A DNA stretch of 12,761 nucleotides from an uncultured bacterium (GTDB lineage: Bacteria > Planctomycetota > UBA11346): assembly GCA_965366325.1 (NCBI GenBank), contig CBDUFM010000015.1:1-12761 (forward strand), read 5' to 3'. Of the stretch, positions 596 to 8,600 are shown one piece after another (position 1 is the stretch's first letter; every line of letters starts with the position of its first letter). The notes below the pieces were generated by a model. It made no database searches. It was not told the DNA's origin and worked only from the letters and a program-made list of their open reading frames with translations. The position numbers were made by a program, and so were the translations under genes.

Positions 596-1285
596 CTAAC
601 TGTTTTGGTTCGAATCAGATAATGATTGTGTTTTAAAAAGCTGGTTAATCTCTTCCGCAATCCCTTCCAAGGTACTCATCGAAGAAGGGAGTAGGCCGCC
701 ATCACCGTGTGCTAGGTAATTCCTGATGTGTCGACCAGAGTGCAATCTTTTCTTAGCAATATCCAGGACTCTTAACTCTGCAGTTATTTCATGTTCTTTG
801 GGTTCGGGGATTGGTATTGACTCGCCGTTATCTAGTTGTCCGCTCCCAATTAGGTTAACAATATTTTTATGCCACACTCTACCTTCTGCTAATGGTCTAG
901 CTGATTCATATCCTTCATTGGCAATCCATCCCTGCTCAAGAGTGATATTCATATAGTCCATAAGTCTTGCTGGTGGGTGTTGAACTGCGATGGTGTCTTT
1001 TTCCTGTTCGTATTTCATTTTTAATGCTTTTTCTAAGGCGCTAAAGCCAATTGTCTCCGCGGCTTGATGTAGCCTATAGGAAAAATATGTGTAGAGTGCT
1101 ATGTTTTTTGCGTTCTCGAAAAGTTGCTTTACTTCATTGGGAGTGCTTTCAATTAAGGTAATATTGGCTATATCGGCATGCCAATTAGCAATATTAATAT
1201 GCTTGTTGCGAGGATCAGCGGTTGATATCTGATCCAACGGTTTCAATGAATCTTCGGGACGAATGGTGTTGTCTGAGTTGGTCAT
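596..1285 (-). CDS. Hypothetical 229-aa protein with a C-terminal HEPN-like motif. Candidate RNase, toxin or abortive-infection effector.
   Basis: An uninterrupted ORF in AT-rich DNA. Its start ATG (1283-1285) overlaps the upstream gene's TGA (1282-1284) as ATGA. Residues R188-N-Y-L-A-H193-G194 (nt 707-724) match the HEPN signature R-[N/H/D]-x3-H (Rx4-6H). No other recognisable domain. Confidence 0.65.
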   Translation of the reverse strand: MTNSDNTIRPEDSLKPLDQISTADPRNKHINIANWHADIANITLIESTPNEVKQLFENAKNIALYTYFSYRLHQAAETIGFSALEKALKMKYEQEKDTIAVQHPPARLMDYMNITLEQGWIANEGYESARPLAEGRVWHKNIVNLIGSGQLDNGESIPIPEPKEHEITAELRVLDIAKKRLHSGRHIRNYLAHGDGGLLPSSMSTLEGIAEEINQLFKTQSLSDSNQNS

Positions 1286-1794
1286 GTTAATTCCGAATTG
1301 GATAACAATTCTTTGAATTGTTTTTCCATTTTAGCGATTTCTATATTTAAGTATTCGATTGACTCAATAACCATGGATTTGAAATCAGATAGCAACTTGG
1401 CGTCATTCCACAATACTTTTGAGGATTTAAGGGCGATTGGAAATATATCGTGGGAGGGCCAATAGTGCAGTTTTGGGTTGTGTATGGTTATGTCTTTATG
1501 GGCGATTCTTGTGTCTCTCTCGTGTTCGAGTAGGTTAAATGTGGTGCTGTGGTTTGGACATACATTTTGACTGTCCAGTTTAATGAATTTTCCACTATGA
1601 ATTGCATGGCTTTTCTTAAAAGGTCTGAAGAAGCAGATTATGGCAAAGTAGAATAGGGCGGATCCTGTTGAGTTATCATCAGCTTTTTCGGAACTTTGTA
1701 ATAATGATTCTGTATATTGCAAATCGGCTAGCGCCATTCTTCGGCTAACGTATAATTCTTCCACTTTGTTATCCACGGTGAGCTCCTTGTTCAT
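1282..1794 (-). CDS. Hypothetical 170-aa protein, the upstream partner of the HEPN-like gene.
   Basis: ORF in the same AT-rich block with a 4-bp ATGA overlap onto the downstream gene. The Shine-Dalgarno sequence is weak. It contains a hydrophobic patch (ALFYFAIICFF) and an R-x5-H stretch (RDTRIAH) that could be a second, degenerate HEPN-like motif. No similarity I can name. Confidence 0.6.
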   Translation of the reverse strand: MNKELTVDNKVEELYVSRRMALADLQYTESLLQSSEKADDNSTGSALFYFAIICFFRPFKKSHAIHSGKFIKLDSQNVCPNHSTTFNLLEHERDTRIAHKDITIHNPKLHYWPSHDIFPIALKSSKVLWNDAKLLSDFKSMVIESIEYLNIEIAKMEKQFKELLSNSELT

Positions 1795-2123
1795 AGCAAT
1801 GATGCTTAAGGTAGTTTTTGGGTAACTCTGTTGGCTCTCGTATGGTGAGGTTGGGGTTGTGTCCCAAGATTATTTTGTTTATCATGCGTATTCCTTCTAG
1901 GATTGCTCAGAGTGTGTGTCCGTGCAGGCCCAAGAACAACGGTGATTGTTTATTATAATACTGTGTGTTTCTTACACGGCTTGTTTGTATCTGTTGGATG
2001 TCCACTTAACTGGTGCGTCTCAAGGCTCAAATGGGGTACGATCCAAGGCGGCAAAGCCCGTAGTTTACTGGTGTAAATAAGGGCTTTGCCAACGCCGGAG
2101 CGTGCCCCAGATGAGCATTGAGA

Positions 2124-3227
2124 CTACATCAAGAGGTTTAACTGTTCAGACAACTTGCGCTCACCTAGCTGAATGTGCAGGTTGTTGGTCTTGACCATTT
2201 CGAGCAAGATGTCCAACTTGTGCATTTCCATTAAGGTGCTGTTTTGTTCCAGCAACTTCGCGGTGTTGGCCTGACTACGCATAGCGGCGTGTTCTTCGCG
2301 ACGCGTAATCAAATGTGCCTCTGCCGTTGCCTTGGCTTCCGTGATCTTGTTCAGTAAAATTTTCATTTCACCGGGCAAGATGATGTCGCGAATGCCGAAG
2401 CTGATCAAGCGGATGCCGTAGCGCTTGCTGATGATCTGCAGATGTTCTTGCATTTCTTCAGTAAGTGCTTGCTTGGATTCAAGCAGGGCATCCAGTGTGC
2501 GAGAGCCAACGCTGCTACGTAAAGCTAACTGCGCTTCACGGTAGATGCTTTGTTCTAGGTGTTCGACCTGCATCACAATTAATTCGATATCTTGTGGGGC
2601 GTAGGTCAGCACAGCATTGAAACGAACACTTACACGGTCAGCGGTCATGATTTCTTGACCACTTAAATCAAGCACGCATTCACGTTGGTCGATGGTATGC
2701 AGGCGCACGTTCTTCACGTGATTCCACATAGCGTAACGACCAGGCTTGAGCAATTGCTGGTGATCGCCGTCTTCAAACAACAGGACGCGTTCGTGTGCTT
2801 GGACATGAAACACGCGTAGGTGTTGGGTGAAGCTAGGGCTATCGGCTAATTGCACAAAGCGTTCGTGTGTAAACAGGGCCGCAGTCGCATCAACAATTTC
2901 CACAGAAACGCTGTGGAAGCTGTTGAGTAAGATATGTGTACCGCGGCCTAAAATACGCGCAAAACGATCGTTGATCCACACCAGCGCACGTTGGTGATCT
3001 TTAACGTCGATCACTTCAGCGTGCTCTTTGAGCGCAGCGGATTTGATGAAGACATCGCTATCGTCATGCGTCACAAAGACGTCACGCAGGGAGAGGATAT
3101 CGACGCGGAAGCGCTTGCCTGGGTCAAATGTTTTAAACCAGCCAGCCTCAGCGATGTGCTGAAAAACATTGTCGCGGTACACAAGACCGATTTCAAAAGG
3201 CTTGATAAGTTTGCGTGTGTAGAACAT
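2124..3227 (-). CDS. SPFH/band-7 (stomatin/prohibitin/flotillin-like) domain protein, 367 aa.
   Basis: Strong Shine-Dalgarno (AAGGAG, 6 nt before the ATG at 3227). The central region has band-7 character (…RVSVRFNAVLTYAPQD…, …GIRLISFGIRDIILPGE…) followed by a long coiled-coil C-terminal tail. There is no N-terminal transmembrane helix. Confidence 0.85.
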   Translation of the reverse strand: MFYTRKLIKPFEIGLVYRDNVFQHIAEAGWFKTFDPGKRFRVDILSLRDVFVTHDDSDVFIKSAALKEHAEVIDVKDHQRALVWINDRFARILGRGTHILLNSFHSVSVEIVDATAALFTHERFVQLADSPSFTQHLRVFHVQAHERVLLFEDGDHQQLLKPGRYAMWNHVKNVRLHTIDQRECVLDLSGQEIMTADRVSVRFNAVLTYAPQDIELIVMQVEHLEQSIYREAQLALRSSVGSRTLDALLESKQALTEEMQEHLQIISKRYGIRLISFGIRDIILPGEMKILLNKITEAKATAEAHLITRREEHAAMRSQANTAKLLEQNSTLMEMHKLDILLEMVKTNNLHIQLGERKLSEQLNLLM

Positions 3228-3549: not shown

Positions 3550-3623
3550 GTCGAAATACTGGAGTCGAACCAGTGACTGACGGATTAACTGTCCGCTGCT
3601 CTACCCGCTGAGCTAATTTCCGA
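3550..3623 (-). tRNA. tRNA-Asn(GUU)-like gene, possibly a non-canonical tRNA or pseudo-tRNA.
   Basis: The cloverleaf reads from the minus strand. D-arm: GCUC-AGCGGGUA-GAGC. Anticodon arm: GCGGA-CAGUUAA-UCCGU, nearly identical to E. coli tRNA-Asn. Variable loop: CAGUC. T-arm: ACUGG-UUCGACU-CCAGU. Two oddities: position 33 is A rather than the near-universal U, and the 5' acceptor strand (UCGGAAAU) needs a bulged G to pair with the 3' strand (AUUUCGA). No CCA is encoded. Confidence 0.7.
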
Positions 3624-4007: not shown

Positions 4008-4334
4008 ATGTCAGATACGCAACAGCAGATTCAAGCCCTGGAACAAATGCAGTCGAAAATACTTGCCTTGCGCGCTCAATTAGCGGTGCAGTCGGAGGCA
4101 GGTGTCCCAACCGACGATGTGGAAATGTTGAGTGCTGTTGCTTTAGAACAATTGGATGAGCAGGCACTGAGTGCGCATCTTGGTCGCTGTGCAATTATTT
4201 TGGCTGGATTAGAGGCGCGTGCGCAGGCTCTTGGCAAGGGGCGCAGCGTGACTGGTCTGGCGAGTATTTTAATTGTGTTGGCTGTTGTGGCTGTGCTTTT
4301 GGTGGGTTTATTATTTATATTGCAGGCGCTCTAA
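4008..4334 (+). CDS. Small tail-anchored membrane protein, 108 aa, with an N-terminal coiled-coil/amphipathic region and a C-terminal transmembrane helix.
   Basis: The N-terminus (QQQIQALEQMQSKILALRAQLAVQ) has heptad-like character and the C-terminus (LASILIVLAVVAVLLVGLLFILQAL) is a clear transmembrane segment. The architecture resembles ElaB/YqjD-type proteins; the sequence itself is not recognised. Weak Shine-Dalgarno. Confidence 0.6.
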   Translation: MSDTQQQIQALEQMQSKILALRAQLAVQSEAGVPTDDVEMLSAVALEQLDEQALSAHLGRCAIILAGLEARAQALGKGRSVTGLASILIVLAVVAVLLVGLLFILQAL

Positions 4335-4339
4335 ATTAC

Positions 4340-4729
4340 ATGAGCGCTGTCCTTCGGGCTTTGATGGTCTTGCAGCTGTTTTCTGTGTTACTGGCATTTT
4401 CCACGCTTTGTGGGGTTGAGGATGTGGTCAGTAAGCGCTGGCAGTGGTTAATTGCGCAGAAGCTTGTCGTGGAACAGGGTCAGTCACTTGCCTATAAAGC
4501 TAGACTTACGCAAGCTGTTCGCTGCTGGCTTGATGCAGAAAAATCAGGACATTCCGTGTTTTGGTCGCCGCTTCTGTCTGCGCATCGCGACGAACAACAG
4601 GGCCATTATGATGGTTTTGCACTGGCTCAAAAAGTCATGGCCGTGGAAATTGCGCTGGCGAGTGGTGTCGAGGCTGACGAGATTGCCTCTGTTTTCATGG
4701 GGCGCTATTTCGTTTTGCATAAACATTAA
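4340..4729 (+). CDS. Hypothetical 129-aa protein with an N-terminal hydrophobic signal or anchor segment.
   Basis: It starts 5 nt after the preceding stop, so it may be co-transcribed and re-initiated. The N-terminus (LRALMVLQLFSVLLAFSTLCG) looks like a signal peptide or transmembrane segment. An AT-rich hairpin (cattaat-tgg-attaatg) overlaps its stop. Confidence 0.5.
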   Translation: MSAVLRALMVLQLFSVLLAFSTLCGVEDVVSKRWQWLIAQKLVVEQGQSLAYKARLTQAVRCWLDAEKSGHSVFWSPLLSAHRDEQQGHYDGFALAQKVMAVEIALASGVEADEIASVFMGRYFVLHKH

Positions 4730-4940
4730 TTGGATTAATGAGTAAGCATTAAAAATGAACAAAGACTGCGTAGCCAATGCGGGTTTATTATGATTACGTA
4801 AGCCTCATCGGGGCTCAGTGTTTTACTGTATGCTTAGGTGTTGCTGTATGATGGTGATAATAGGAGAATTCTACTAGTTTTAAAATCCCCGCTGATTATA
4901 CTACTTAATGAACTGTAGAACCATCGCGAAGGAGACAAAG

Positions 4941-5462: not shown

Positions 5463-6221
5463 ATGCCTTACGAGACCTATCAAATTCTTTTATGTGCGCT
5501 GATCCTATTGGCTGGTGGATTTTTACAGAGCACCGTTGGTTTCGCCTTTGGTTTATTTGCGATCCCTTTATTAATGTGGATAAAAATTCCTATCGAACAA
5601 GTTTTGGCTATTATTACAGTTTCTACGTGCGCGCAGAGTTTGGTTGCATCGCGGGCAATGAGTGAGGTCAAGGTTCCGAAGCAGATGCTGTTGATAGCAG
5701 CGAGTATTCGCATTGTGTTTATAGTTTTAGGCACGCTTATTTTGCAGCTCATTGTGGATTTTGATAAAAATATAATGCACGCGATAATGGGTGTTATTCT
5801 TATTTGTTCGGTGCTGCTGCTGTGGTTATTGCCGCAACGAAAAACAGAGACTGTGCAGCGGGGCTTATTGTACGGAGTGAGCGCACCGCTGAGTGGGACA
5901 ATTGGTGGCATGATTGGTATGGGTGGTCCGCCACTGCTGTTGTGGGCGATGTTGCAGCCATGGGATCCGAAGCAAATCCGTGTATTTTTGTTTATGATGT
6001 TTATGACCTCGATTCCATTCCAATTTCCAATTCTTGTTATTGTATTTGGATGGGATGTTTGTTGGGGTGCTGCCTTAGCGGTTTTATGTTTCCCGCTGGT
6101 GTATGTGGGTTCTCGTTTGGGCGTGCAGGTGGGGAATAAATTGAGCAAGGCGCAGCTCACCCACATTGTTTATGTGCTGCTATTAATTTTAGGCACTCGT
6201 TCGATATTTAAATATTTTTAG
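5463..6221 (+). CDS. TauE/SafE (TSUP, DUF81) family anion permease, a probable sulfite/sulfate/sulfonate exporter.
   Basis: A 252-aa polytopic membrane protein. Its N-terminus (…LLCALILLAGGFLQSTVGFAFGLFAIPLLM) and the glycine-rich stretch GGMIGMGGPPLL are typical of the TauE/SafE family. Confidence 0.8.
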   Translation: MPYETYQILLCALILLAGGFLQSTVGFAFGLFAIPLLMWIKIPIEQVLAIITVSTCAQSLVASRAMSEVKVPKQMLLIAASIRIVFIVLGTLILQLIVDFDKNIMHAIMGVILICSVLLLWLLPQRKTETVQRGLLYGVSAPLSGTIGGMIGMGGPPLLLWAMLQPWDPKQIRVFLFMMFMTSIPFQFPILVIVFGWDVCWGAALAVLCFPLVYVGSRLGVQVGNKLSKAQLTHIVYVLLLILGTRSIFKYF

Positions 6222-6236
6222 GGCGTTGCTGTGGAT

Positions 6237-6965
6237 TTACTGCATCAGGTCAGAGCAGGCCTCGGCGCTGCGGGCGAGTAAACCACCATAATGGTCGATG
6301 TCATTATCGGGCATGGTAAAAATATTGCCGCCTAGACAGAGCGCACCAATAATCTGTCCTTTGCAATAAACTGGTGCAGCGAGGCGTCGTCGTTCAGGAC
6401 CCGGTAAATAGGTGAAGCCACGCTCATCAAGCCGTTCGAGGTTTTCAATTATTTCATTGAGACTTAACTGGTAGCCTTTCTCTGTTTGATTGTTAATGCT
6501 GTTGGGGTCTTGTTGCTGCCACCAGTCCATGGATTTAAATAACCAGCCCCAGGGAGCGACGTGGAGATTTTTGACCACATGTCCCGGTTCTTGGAGTGGC
6601 GAAGCGTCTTCGTGCATGATGCGATCGAGGCAGATCATGGCGCTGCCACTCCAATAAATGCTAATCGCGGTGTTGCCGCTGCGTTGCTGGAGGCTGTTAA
6701 GGAAGCATTGTGCGGCGTCGCGAAAGCGCAGGCGTTGATTGTCGTTGCCCACCAATTGGCCTACCTTGGCGCTGTTTATATAGCCCTGATTGTCAGCTAG
6801 TTTTTTGACATAGCCGAGTTCACTGAGGCTCTTGAGCAGGCGCATGGTGCTGGCATTCGAGGCCTCGATGCATTTGGCGATGTTGCTGAAGCTGAGTCCT
6901 GCACTGTGTTTAGCGAGCAGACTGATGACTTGAAGGCCGCGTTCTAGGGCTGCTGGGCTGGACAT
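6237..6965 (-). CDS. IclR-family transcriptional regulator.
   Basis: An N-terminal winged helix-turn-helix (LERGLQVISLLAKHSAGLSFSNIAKCIEASNASTMRLLKSLSELGYV) and an IclR-type C-terminal effector domain. It is transcribed divergently from the sulfatase. Confidence 0.85.
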   Translation of the reverse strand: MSSPAALERGLQVISLLAKHSAGLSFSNIAKCIEASNASTMRLLKSLSELGYVKKLADNQGYINSAKVGQLVGNDNQRLRFRDAAQCFLNSLQQRSGNTAISIYWSGSAMICLDRIMHEDASPLQEPGHVVKNLHVAPWGWLFKSMDWWQQQDPNSINNQTEKGYQLSLNEIIENLERLDERGFTYLPGPERRRLAAPVYCKGQIIGALCLGGNIFTMPDNDIDHYGGLLARSAEACSDLMQ

Positions 6966-7085: not shown

Positions 7086-8600
7086 ATGATGGCAGAGGCA
7101 CATACACAAATCCCCGAGCAGTGGCAGGGTTTATCAGAGCGGCCGAATATTTTATGGATCTGCACTGATCAGCAGCGTAGCGATACGCTAGGTTGTTATG
7201 GGAATCAATTCGTGCGCACACCTGCTATCGATAAACTGGCACGTGAAGGTGTTTTGTTCGAGCAGGCCTTTGTGCAGAATCCATTATGTACGCCGAGTCG
7301 CGGTAGTTTTTTAACCGGCCGTTATCCATCGACTAATCGTCTGCGTCAAAATGGTCAGCTGTGTCCCCCAGATATACGTATCCTGCCGCGGATGCTGGCC
7401 GATAAGGGCTATGTCTGTGGCTTGGCTGGGAAATTACATTTAAGTCCCTGCGATAAACGCTTTGAGAATACGCAAAGTAAATCCGACTGGTGGAAATATA
7501 AAAACGATTATTATTTCTGGGGAAGCGAAAAACGTATTGATGATGGTTATGCCGAATTTTATTGGAATCATGCGCCAGGAAGCGGATCAAATCAAAATTG
7601 CAGTGATTACAATCGTTGGGTACAAGAACGCGGCGGGGAGATAGCCTATCCTAAGCGCGATGACTGTCATTCTGTGTTACAGGGGATGCCTGATGAATTA
7701 CATCAAACCCGTTGGGCGGTTGATCACGCGATTAATTTTATGCAACGTCATGCAGAGACGGACTATCCGTGGATGTTTTCGCTCAATATTTTTGACCCGC
7801 ATCCGCATTTTGATCCCGAGCCCCAGTATTTAGAACGTTACTTAAAGATGCTTGATGATATTCCCTTGCCGGCCTATGTGGCTGGTGAAAATGACAGGAA
7901 ACCAGCGCATCATCAAAAAGCACATGGCGTTGCTGAATGGTCCGACCACGACAAAAAAATGATGGTCGCAGCTTATTGGGCCATGTGCGATCATATTGAT
8001 GCACATATGCAGCGTTTAATGGATGCCTTAGAGGCGAGCGGTCAGCGCGACAACACAATTATTATGTTTCATTCTGATCACGGTGAATTATTGGGTGATC
8101 ATAATAAATCACCAAAGGGGCCGTATTTATACGACTGTAGTGTGCGCGTACCTTTGATCATGTCGTGGCCGGGGCATTTTGCACAGGGCAAGCGCGTGCA
8201 GGGTTTGGTGGAATTAACGGATATCGCACCAACGATTAATGACATTTTGGATTTAGGCGAAGAGGCTTCGATGCAGGGCGAGTCTTTGTTGACGGTCTTG
8301 GAATCTGATGGTGATACCGCGCATGTACGCGAGAATGTGTATTGTGAATATCACAATAGTAATCCCCACGGCGGTAATCGTATTTACCTTAATATGCTGC
8401 GCACGGAGACGCATAAAATTATTGTCGCACATTCGACCAATGACGGTGAATTGTATGATTTACGCGCCGATCCCGGTGAGCACCGCAATCTGTGGTCAGA
8501 TCCCGATTATGCCGCTATTAAATGTGATCTCTTATTGCAGCTGAGCCATAGACAGGCATTTAGCACGGATCCCTTGCCACAGCGCGTCGGTATTTATTGA
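7086..8600 (+). CDS. Cys-type sulfatase (arylsulfatase / sulfuric ester hydrolase family), apparently cytoplasmic.
   Basis: Shine-Dalgarno AAGGAG at 7076-7081. The formylglycine signature C-T-P-S-R-G-S-F-L-T-G-R is present, as is the second sulfatase motif (…MFHSDHGELLGDH…). There is no N-terminal signal peptide. Confidence 0.9.
   Translation: MMAEAHTQIPEQWQGLSERPNILWICTDQQRSDTLGCYGNQFVRTPAIDKLAREGVLFEQAFVQNPLCTPSRGSFLTGRYPSTNRLRQNGQLCPPDIRILPRMLADKGYVCGLAGKLHLSPCDKRFENTQSKSDWWKYKNDYYFWGSEKRIDDGYAEFYWNHAPGSGSNQNCSDYNRWVQERGGEIAYPKRDDCHSVLQGMPDELHQTRWAVDHAINFMQRHAETDYPWMFSLNIFDPHPHFDPEPQYLERYLKMLDDIPLPAYVAGENDRKPAHHQKAHGVAEWSDHDKKMMVAAYWAMCDHIDAHMQRLMDALEASGQRDNTIIMFHSDHGELLGDHNKSPKGPYLYDCSVRVPLIMSWPGHFAQGKRVQGLVELTDIAPTINDILDLGEEASMQGESLLTVLESDGDTAHVRENVYCEYHNSNPHGGNRIYLNMLRTETHKIIVAHSTNDGELYDLRADPGEHRNLWSDPDYAAIKCDLLLQLSHRQAFSTDPLPQRVGIY

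Follow-up and report, generated by a model that had tools for sequence, protein, structure and literature searches.

A stand-alone HEPN-fold protein of a large unannotated family, encoded beside an orphan gene in a probable planctomycete

Introduction

The HEPN superfamily is built on a four-helix up-down bundle, has metal-independent RNase activity and forms a composite active site in the dimer (Anantharaman et al. 2013, PMC3710099). In that definition the residue following the arginine of the catalytic motif is polar, helix 2 carries another conserved acidic residue (typically as Ex3[KR]), helices 2 and 3 are separated by variable inserts, and families that have become inactive typically lose the Rx4-6H motif (PMC3710099). 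One gammaproteobacterial family with a conserved Rx4-6H is carried as an integron cassette (PDB 3jrt; Anantharaman et al. 2013, PMC3710099).

HEPN abortive-infection proteins that act alone are already well established, and include HepS, ApeA, DARNA and AbiD/F/J/U2. HepS (“HEPN Solo”; PDB 9oik), an abortive-infection anticodon nuclease from the Salmonella prophage Gifsy-1, is a protein of 218 aa without a partner gene; its tetramer is inactive until the phage J tail-tip protein opens it, whereupon anticodon loops are cleaved (PMC13043305). ApeA, PD-T4-2 and DARNA/PD-T7-3 (PF18739, PF18735) are HEPN defence proteins encoded by single genes; they carry a motif of the RNxxxH type and are often found in restriction-modification or defence loci. 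For DARNA/PD-T7-3, a HEPN anticodon nuclease, the activator is SSB-bound ssDNA. In the HEPN Abi family Abi_2 (AbiD/AbiF) the motif lies near the C-terminus. Other HEPN proteins come in pairs, and upstream neutralisers are common for HEPN toxins. In the HEPN-MNT system HepT-MntA (type VII toxin-antitoxin), the tyrosine of the RX4HXY motif is AMPylated by MntA.

Here we report on two overlapping genes in a 12,761-nucleotide stretch of DNA from an uncultured bacterium, which as a whole we refer to as the window. A preliminary description of the window had proposed that they form an uncharacterised two-component HEPN system, serving phage defence or acting as a toxin-antitoxin pair.

Results

Two overlapping genes in a low-GC islet

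The two ORFs are arranged as previously described. ORF A (1282-1794, minus strand; 170 aa in the ORF list) and gene B (596-1285, minus strand; 229 aa) overlap by an ATGA at 1282-1285, read from the sequence, in which the stop of A meets the start of B. They lie in a low-GC islet, with a GC content of 0.365-0.41 over about positions 800-2000 vs about 0.47-0.52 elsewhere in the window (A 0.378, B 0.413). The start of B is backed by an alignment of homologue N-termini. The start of A is probably the GTG at 1776, giving a product of 164 aa, because a perfect Shine-Dalgarno sequence, AAGGAG (1783-1788), is found 6 nt upstream of it (the whole element, through the GTG at 1774-1776, covering 1774-1788 on the minus strand). 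B may lack autonomy in the lineage of the window, given how tightly the ATGA couples it to A. No sigma-70 promoter for A-B was found in a scan of the minus strand, which may not suit a planctomycete.

Upstream of A lies a gene for a slipin/SPFH protein (Band_7) from a family of about 4,300 homologues, whose named relatives are almost all from Planctomycetota (44-48% identity). Just after its stop codon, at 2050-2090 on the minus strand, lies an inverted repeat (I2) with 16-bp arms that are 88% complementary and a 9-nt loop. This hairpin probably separates the slipin transcript from A-B as a putative terminator. We considered whether the slipin gene belongs to the same system and rejected this based on the intervening hairpin, the wide conservation of its family and its absence from the vicinity of all other B homologues.

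Two further possibilities for the setting of the islet were rejected. First, a tRNA-Asn gene is present at 3550-3623, and an island anchored in it was dismissed as both a repeat of the tRNA 3' end and an integrase are absent from the window. Second, a search for attC-like or flanking direct repeats around the islet turned up only short repeats at chance level.

The low GC content, the gammaproteobacterial relatives of B (below) and the planctomycete-like flank together suggest that B was acquired across phyla. From these compositional and sequence affinities, the islet carrying B probably came from a gammaproteobacterium-like donor into a probable planctomycete.

Gene B belongs to a large family with conserved HEPN motifs

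Homology searches yielded 45 relatives of B, all of them hypothetical proteins. The named close relatives are all from Gammaproteobacteria: Cellvibrio, Vibrio parahaemolyticus, Microbulbifer, Gynuella, Shewanella mangrovi, Alcanivorax and Alteromonas. An exhaustive profile search extended the family to 1,138 representatives of clusters at 50% identity with E≤1e-3 (570 with E≤1e-10), nearly all of which are 200-230 aa long and are matched end to end. Conservation was assessed in two alignments, one of the close family (A1) and one of window B together with 149 representatives that are 22-46% identical to it (A2; n=150).

B contains GRHIRNYLAHGDGG, with R188 encoded at 722-724 and H193 at 707-709. 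The Rx4H signature R188-N-Y-L-A-H193 (707-724, minus strand) closes core helix 3 (176-193) on its C-terminal side, before a loop. R188 and H193, whose lack of conservation would have refuted the reading in the preliminary description, are, like N189, at least 90% conserved in both alignments, and the A2 consensus around them is RNxLAHGS. Only 12 columns of A2 reach this level of conservation: D24, P49, N61, L64, Y65, E85, A87, L88, A115, R188, N189 and H193. The glutamate among them, E85, is invariant in A1 and opens an Ex3[KR] second HEPN motif, E85-K-A-L-K89 (1019-1033, minus strand; A2 consensus LExALR), in core helix 2 (72-95). A family-specific block, PxxVxQxFENAKN...Y..HQ, runs from P49 to Q74 (1064-1141, minus strand) across core helix 1 and the beginning of helix 2. 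Eleven of its columns are invariant in A1 (P49, V52, Q54, F56, E57, A59, K60, N61, Y70, H73 and Q74), and P49, N61, L64 and Y65 are at least 90% conserved in A2.

The AlphaFold model of B, built on an alignment, is all-helical (pLDDT 85.5, pTM 0.80), with helices at residues 50-65, 72-95, 108-117, 127-148, 164-174, 176-193 and 203-216. The predicted structure contains a four-helix up-down bundle in which the Rx4H motif is placed as the superfamily requires, with a helix (176-193), a loop (194-202) and a further helix (203-216) (PMC3710099). The residue after the motif arginine is the polar N189, E85-KAL-K89 falls within helix 72-95, and an insert at 96-175 adds three extra helices between the Ex3K helix and the Rx4H helix. 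The protein does not end at HGDGG, as the preliminary description had it; it extends 35 residues past the motif, and these include the last core helix (203-216). Its identification of R188-N-x3-H193 as a HEPN signature held up: the motif can be considered meaningful because it is conserved among homologues and sits in a predicted HEPN fold at the position that the superfamily definition gives it. Thus, all sequence features, and all features of the model, that were open to checking support B as a HEPN-fold protein.

The B family falls outside described HEPN families

The B family is not modelled in Pfam, NCBIfam, PADLOC 2.0 or PHROGs, in line with the uncharacterised status first ascribed to it. 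B had no match in NCBIfam or PHROGs. In Pfam, it matched Abi_2 (PF07751) with an E-value of 0.053 and 14.3 bits, vs a gathering threshold of 25.6, residues 162-194 aligning with profile positions 148-179 of 184 and thereby covering the motif region. Weak Abi_2 matches were found for only 2 of 43 close family members. The wide family (n=150) gave weak matches to HEPN_RiboL-PSP (4), HEPN_Swt1 (3), HEPN_Apea and DUF4145, all below curated thresholds. Against PADLOC v2.0.0, the sole match of window B was to CARF_HEPN over the motif region (E 0.014), and it had no significant match to a system-specific model; across the close family CARF_HEPN was matched by 21/43 members (best 3e-5), RTasHEPN by 15/43 and Csx1/Csm6 by 5/43. 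In the wide family, one member matched PADLOC HEC-07. A, the slipin gene and a 169-aa ORF had no PADLOC v2.0.0 match. A Foldseek search of the B model against the PDB ranked HepT chains first, at E-values that were not significant (best 0.69), and profiles from both alignments matched no PDB sequence, those of solved HEPN structures included.

How does B compare with the described systems? Like HepS, members of the B family are stand-alone HEPN proteins with no conserved partner gene, a resemblance that is functional only: no sequence relationship was found in PDB profile searches at E≤10, the motif of HepS is in the middle of the protein (R100-H105) whereas that of B is near the C-terminus (R188-H193), and HepS is prophage-borne whereas viral contigs yielded no member of the B family. 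The Pfam models for the ApeA/RiboL-PSP group reach the wide family only through weak matches in 4 of 150 members (best E 7e-4), and DARNA, at 456 aa, combines an N-terminal HEPN domain with a large C-terminal sensor domain, whereas B is essentially one decorated HEPN domain. B shares with Abi_2 a motif near the C-terminus and, at 14.3 bits, does not qualify for membership. The integron cassette HEPN family (3jrt) has cassette carriage in common with a Vibrio homologue of B (below), yet PDB-wide profile searches found no match between them. Finally, the nucleotidyltransferase partner of HepT is absent from the window and from about 16 contexts of B homologues, and the tyrosine of RX4HXY is missing: B reads R188-NYLA-H193-G-D, with Asp at H+2, and the family consensus is RNxLAHGS. 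B is also ~100 aa longer than HepT, and has an extension at the N-terminus as well as an insert of roughly 80 aa. Since the HEPN features are present and assignment to HepT-MntA, Abi_2, HepS, 3jrt or a PADLOC system fails, B can be placed in a new family within a well-known kind.

ORF A is an orphan

In searches of 5.8 billion proteins we found no homologue of A besides an identical fragment from the same locus. A also had no match in the PDB, in phages and plasmids (tblastn), or in Pfam, NCBIfam, PADLOC and PHROGs, and phmmer found nothing like it among the ORFs of the loci retrieved for B homologues; no MNT, HTH or RHH features were detected in it. The view that A is not a minimal nucleotidyltransferase is thus upheld by the Pfam, NCBIfam and PADLOC searches. 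The suggestion that it might be a second, degenerate HEPN is not: A has no HEPN profile match, an hhalign comparison with B family alignment A1 gave a probability of 0.08%, and the RDTRIAH stretch on which the suggestion was based (R93-x5-H99) is no evidence in itself, because about 0.7 R-x4-6-H strings are expected by chance in A (5 Arg and 8 His in 170 aa). The single-sequence AlphaFold model of A has a pLDDT of 53.5 and was therefore too poor to justify a fold search.

A nonetheless looks like real coding sequence, based on codon usage, which is better in the true frame than in the shifted ones (by 0.22-0.32 nats per codon), and on ORF length, ORFs of at least 164 codons having arisen in 1.2% of composition-matched simulations of 1.5-kb regions. 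The exact 170-aa product is absent from the protein collection, so gene callers took another start or skipped A.

A second assembly of the locus (L020; about 3x coverage) is 99.88% identical, with 4 differences over 3,257 positions. Two of the four fall inside A, within 6 bp of each other, and one of these turns Leu134 into a stop (position 1394, minus strand; TTG in the window, TAG in L020). The copy of B in this assembly has a single change, which is synonymous. The stop may be a sequencing error, given the coverage of about 3x. On these findings, A may be a regulator specific to this lineage, a hitch-hiker unrelated to B or a gene in decay.

B homologues have variable neighbours in defence islands and mobile elements

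Over about 16 independent contexts, B homologues are preceded by a different gene nearly every time, and our survey of all loci found no recurring upstream partner, bar a DUF2726-B-Avs8 synteny internal to Alcanivoracaceae (L009-L011, L017 and others), in which DUF2726 lies upstream and a full-length PD-Lambda-4_A gene (E = 0, now Avs8) downstream. Defence and nuclease genes are found at other loci as well. In Microbulbifer, a retron Ec48 reverse transcriptase and effector are upstream of the homologue, and NERD, T5orf172 and AHH/Imm11 genes are downstream. A gammaproteobacterial MAG has Type I HsdR and HsdM-S directly upstream, and Shewanella has an HNH gene upstream. Metagenomic loci carry Mrr/PDC-S02 upstream with a second Mrr_cat gene downstream (L021), a Lit-like peptidase U49 upstream with groES downstream (L023), or a 69-aa QSregVF_b gene upstream with KAP NTPase and DUF5677 genes nearby (L006). 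Mobile-element genes are also found, with an integrase-like gene upstream and FRG/PDC-S15 downstream in Alteromonas, a divergent IntI-type integrase directly upstream in a metagenome (L026), and, in another MAG (L042), AAA_13 and CoiA_N genes upstream with ArdA, RadC, AHH/Imm11 and relaxase/MobC nearby. The upstream genes in Cellvibrio, Gynuella and a further metagenome (L024) encode unknown proteins of 564, 148 and 236 aa, respectively. In Alcanivorax venustensis nothing was called upstream, and a divergent gene codes for a 275-aa protein ending in ...LRSKLVHGS.

The Vibrio locus contains seven VCR-like attC copies in an array downstream of an IntI-type integrase. Its B homologue (6001-6645) is alone between two of them (5825-5969 and 6659-6774), and can thus be considered a one-gene integron cassette. 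Such cassette carriage applies to the Vibrio homologue and not to the window copy of B. The homologues have a GC content 7-17 points below that of their surroundings in 9 of 14 loci, in keeping with horizontal acquisition.

Taken together, these loci support the presence of B homologues in defence islands and mobile elements, as a qualitative count over about 16 contexts. Some contexts, the window included, have no recognisable defence gene. A phage origin of B was considered and rejected, as no family locus was found on viral contigs and no match among viral structures (BFVD).

The inference of phage defence or toxin-antitoxin function in the preliminary description fares unevenly against these contexts: the defence-island and mobile settings of the homologues favour it, and the conserved pair that it presumed is not seen. 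Its authors had also named single occurrence in housekeeping contexts as grounds for doubt. With regard to the pair, the homologues do occur singly; the contexts are not housekeeping ones.

Discussion

Our combined findings suggest that B is a self-sufficient, horizontally spread, catalytically competent HEPN-fold RNase of the abortive-infection type, and that A is a lineage-specific orphan translationally coupled to it. We assign this explanation a probability of roughly 0.6. Weighing against it are the absence of the family from viral contigs and viral structures, the premature stops in two homologues (below), the contexts with no recognisable defence gene and the tight coupling to A in the window. 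In this explanation the B family spreads horizontally as one gene that suffices by itself. By analogy with HepS, ApeA, DARNA/PD-T7-3 and AbiD/F/J/U2, of which the solo HEPN tRNases HepS and DARNA are the closest in function, its product would be made constitutively in a latent oligomeric form that an infection cue switches on. Active B would then cut host RNA, most likely in tRNA anticodon loops, and this would stop translation and abort the infection. The N-terminal extension, with the conserved D24, and the ~80-aa insert may contribute to oligomerisation, autoinhibition or trigger sensing. Any role that A might have in such a process is conjectural.

Of the competing explanations, the one that survives best is that A is non-functional, either what is left of a gene in decay or an ORF that arose by chance, favoured by a T-poor coding strand, so that only B matters. 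This would account for the lack of homologues, the missing 170-aa product and the nonsense variant in the second assembly, and the simulations render the length of A only moderately significant. On the other hand, codon usage is clearly better in frame than in shifted frames, a perfect AAGGAG precedes the GTG by 6 nt, and the stop codon exactly overlaps the conserved start of B. We view a non-functional A as unlikely.

Alternatively, A and B may be a true two-component module, toxin-antitoxin or sensor-effector, in which A neutralises or regulates B and the ATGA fixes their ratio. The overlap and the common low-GC islet are consistent with this, as are the strong Shine-Dalgarno sequence, coding-like codon usage and improbable length of A. 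In addition, the ribosome-binding site of B itself is weak, which makes its coupling to A plausible, and a neutraliser encoded upstream would be usual for a HEPN toxin. However, A has no homologue or domain anywhere we searched, has no MNT, HTH or RHH features and is absent from every other locus of the family. B-family genes are kept without it, including in a one-gene integron cassette, and a near-identical strain has a stop at codon 134 of A with only a synonymous change in B. The pair envisaged in the preliminary description thus finds little backing in the orphan status of A, the differing genes upstream of B homologues and the solitary cassette copy, and we regard a two-component module as rather unlikely.

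A third explanation has B as a selfish RNase, for addiction or stress dormancy, which keeps its carrier elements (integron arrays, islands and mobilisable elements) stable and is not anti-phage; this seems quite improbable to us. Homologues are indeed found in an integron cassette, at integrase-adjacent sites and on a mobilisable element that encodes a relaxase, MobC and ArdA, and the same role was proposed for integron cassette HEPN proteins in the 2013 HEPN survey (PMC3710099). Yet the conserved cognate antitoxin that an addiction module normally needs was not found, and the neighbours of B homologues are mostly anti-phage genes and not genes for plasmid or element maintenance.

A more far-reaching version of our preferred explanation would have the B family as a widespread solo anti-phage HEPN tRNase and the window as the birth of a two-component system, with A as a regulator or antidote newly coupled to B after the cross-phylum transfer; we consider this a long shot. 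A bolder variant, drawn by analogy, is that B-family proteins could be back-up RNases that monitor the defence protein encoded upstream, as PrrC monitors EcoprrI. Lastly, it is very improbable that B is a non-catalytic HEPN with a regulatory role in binding ligands or proteins, as in MtlR/YggD or in the HEPN that binds the substrate of nucleotidyltransferases, as the motif R, N and H and the helix-2 Glu are among the only 12 positions that are at least 90% conserved in the wide family, and no conserved DNA-binding or enzyme partner is found near B.

As solo HEPN abortive-infection proteins are an established kind, the B family extends a known theme, and is a plausible new single-gene defence candidate. 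If it is indeed an active defence RNase, the anti-phage catalogue would gain a large HEPN family encoded by a single gene, with at least 1,138 clusters at 50% identity. With a profile made from A1 and A2, many of the “hypothetical proteins” of defence islands and integron arrays could be annotated. The A-B pairing matters only if A is a newly evolved regulator. Premature in-frame stops are present in two B homologues, after the motif in Shewanella and at codon 35 in Gynuella, which fits gain-and-loss dynamics.

Origin of the low-GC islet

The close homologues of B, the 229-aa HEPN-fold protein (596-1285, minus strand), are all gammaproteobacterial, whereas nearly all relatives with names of the neighbouring slipin/SPFH gene (2124-3227, minus strand) are from Planctomycetota, with 44-48% identity. 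These relationships suggest that the low-GC islet, which carries B together with A, the overlapping 170-aa orphan ORF (1282-1794, minus strand), was transferred between phyla. Transfer RNA genes are frequent target sites for island integration. One such gene, for tRNA-Asn (GTT), is located ~1.7 kb upstream of A and B (3550-3623, minus strand); neither a repeat of its 3' end nor an integrase gene was found within the window. Elsewhere in the window, ORF 7086-8600 carries a CTPSR signature, sulfatase-like as judged from the motif only, which would fit a planctomycete host.

Genomic neighbours and domain fusions in the B family

In the Alcanivoracaceae (L009-L011, L017, L018, L029-L037), the gene order DUF2726 nuclease, B homologue, Avs8/PD-Lambda-4_A is kept throughout, with gaps of 66-70 bp. 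This order could reflect plain vertical inheritance or, alternatively, a functional three-gene unit in this lineage. In Alcanivorax venustensis (L003), the gene next to the B homologue is divergently oriented and encodes a 275-aa protein (4036-4863, minus strand) without a match in Pfam or PADLOC. This protein ends in ...YHLRSKLVHGSLKNS and, from this C-terminal sequence, looks like a further Rx4H/HEPN candidate. Pairs of an AHH-nuclease toxin and Imm11 immunity protein were found 3-4 kb downstream of the B homologue in two unrelated loci, one in Microbulbifer (L008, 9510-10672) and the other on a mobilisable element (L042, 9265-10974).

Within the wide family, an AIG2/GGACT (gamma-glutamyl-cyclotransferase-like) domain is fused N-terminal to the HEPN module in at least two members (P0065 and P0115), and three members matched AIG2_2 in a scan of the family. 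A weak GIY-YIG match is located C-terminal to HEPN in representative P0080. One wide-family representative from alignment A2, the alignment of B with 149 such sequences, gave a strong match to the PADLOC candidate system HEC-07 (E 2.7e-18).

Sequence variation in B homologues and in A

Two B-family copies contain in-frame stops, after HEYSG in Shewanella mangrovi (L016, 7977-8630) and at the conserved W35 in Gynuella (L015, 7995-8690), and are therefore probable pseudogenes. In the second assembly of the window locus (L020, ~3x coverage), two substitutions 5 bp apart fall within A, at L020 positions 2569 and 2574 (window 1399 and 1394), one of which turns codon 134 into a stop; the sole change in B is synonymous (window 1106). 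The start of A is also overlapped, in a different frame, by a 38-codon ORF (1769-1885, minus strand) that begins at ATG 1885, preceded by GAAGGA.
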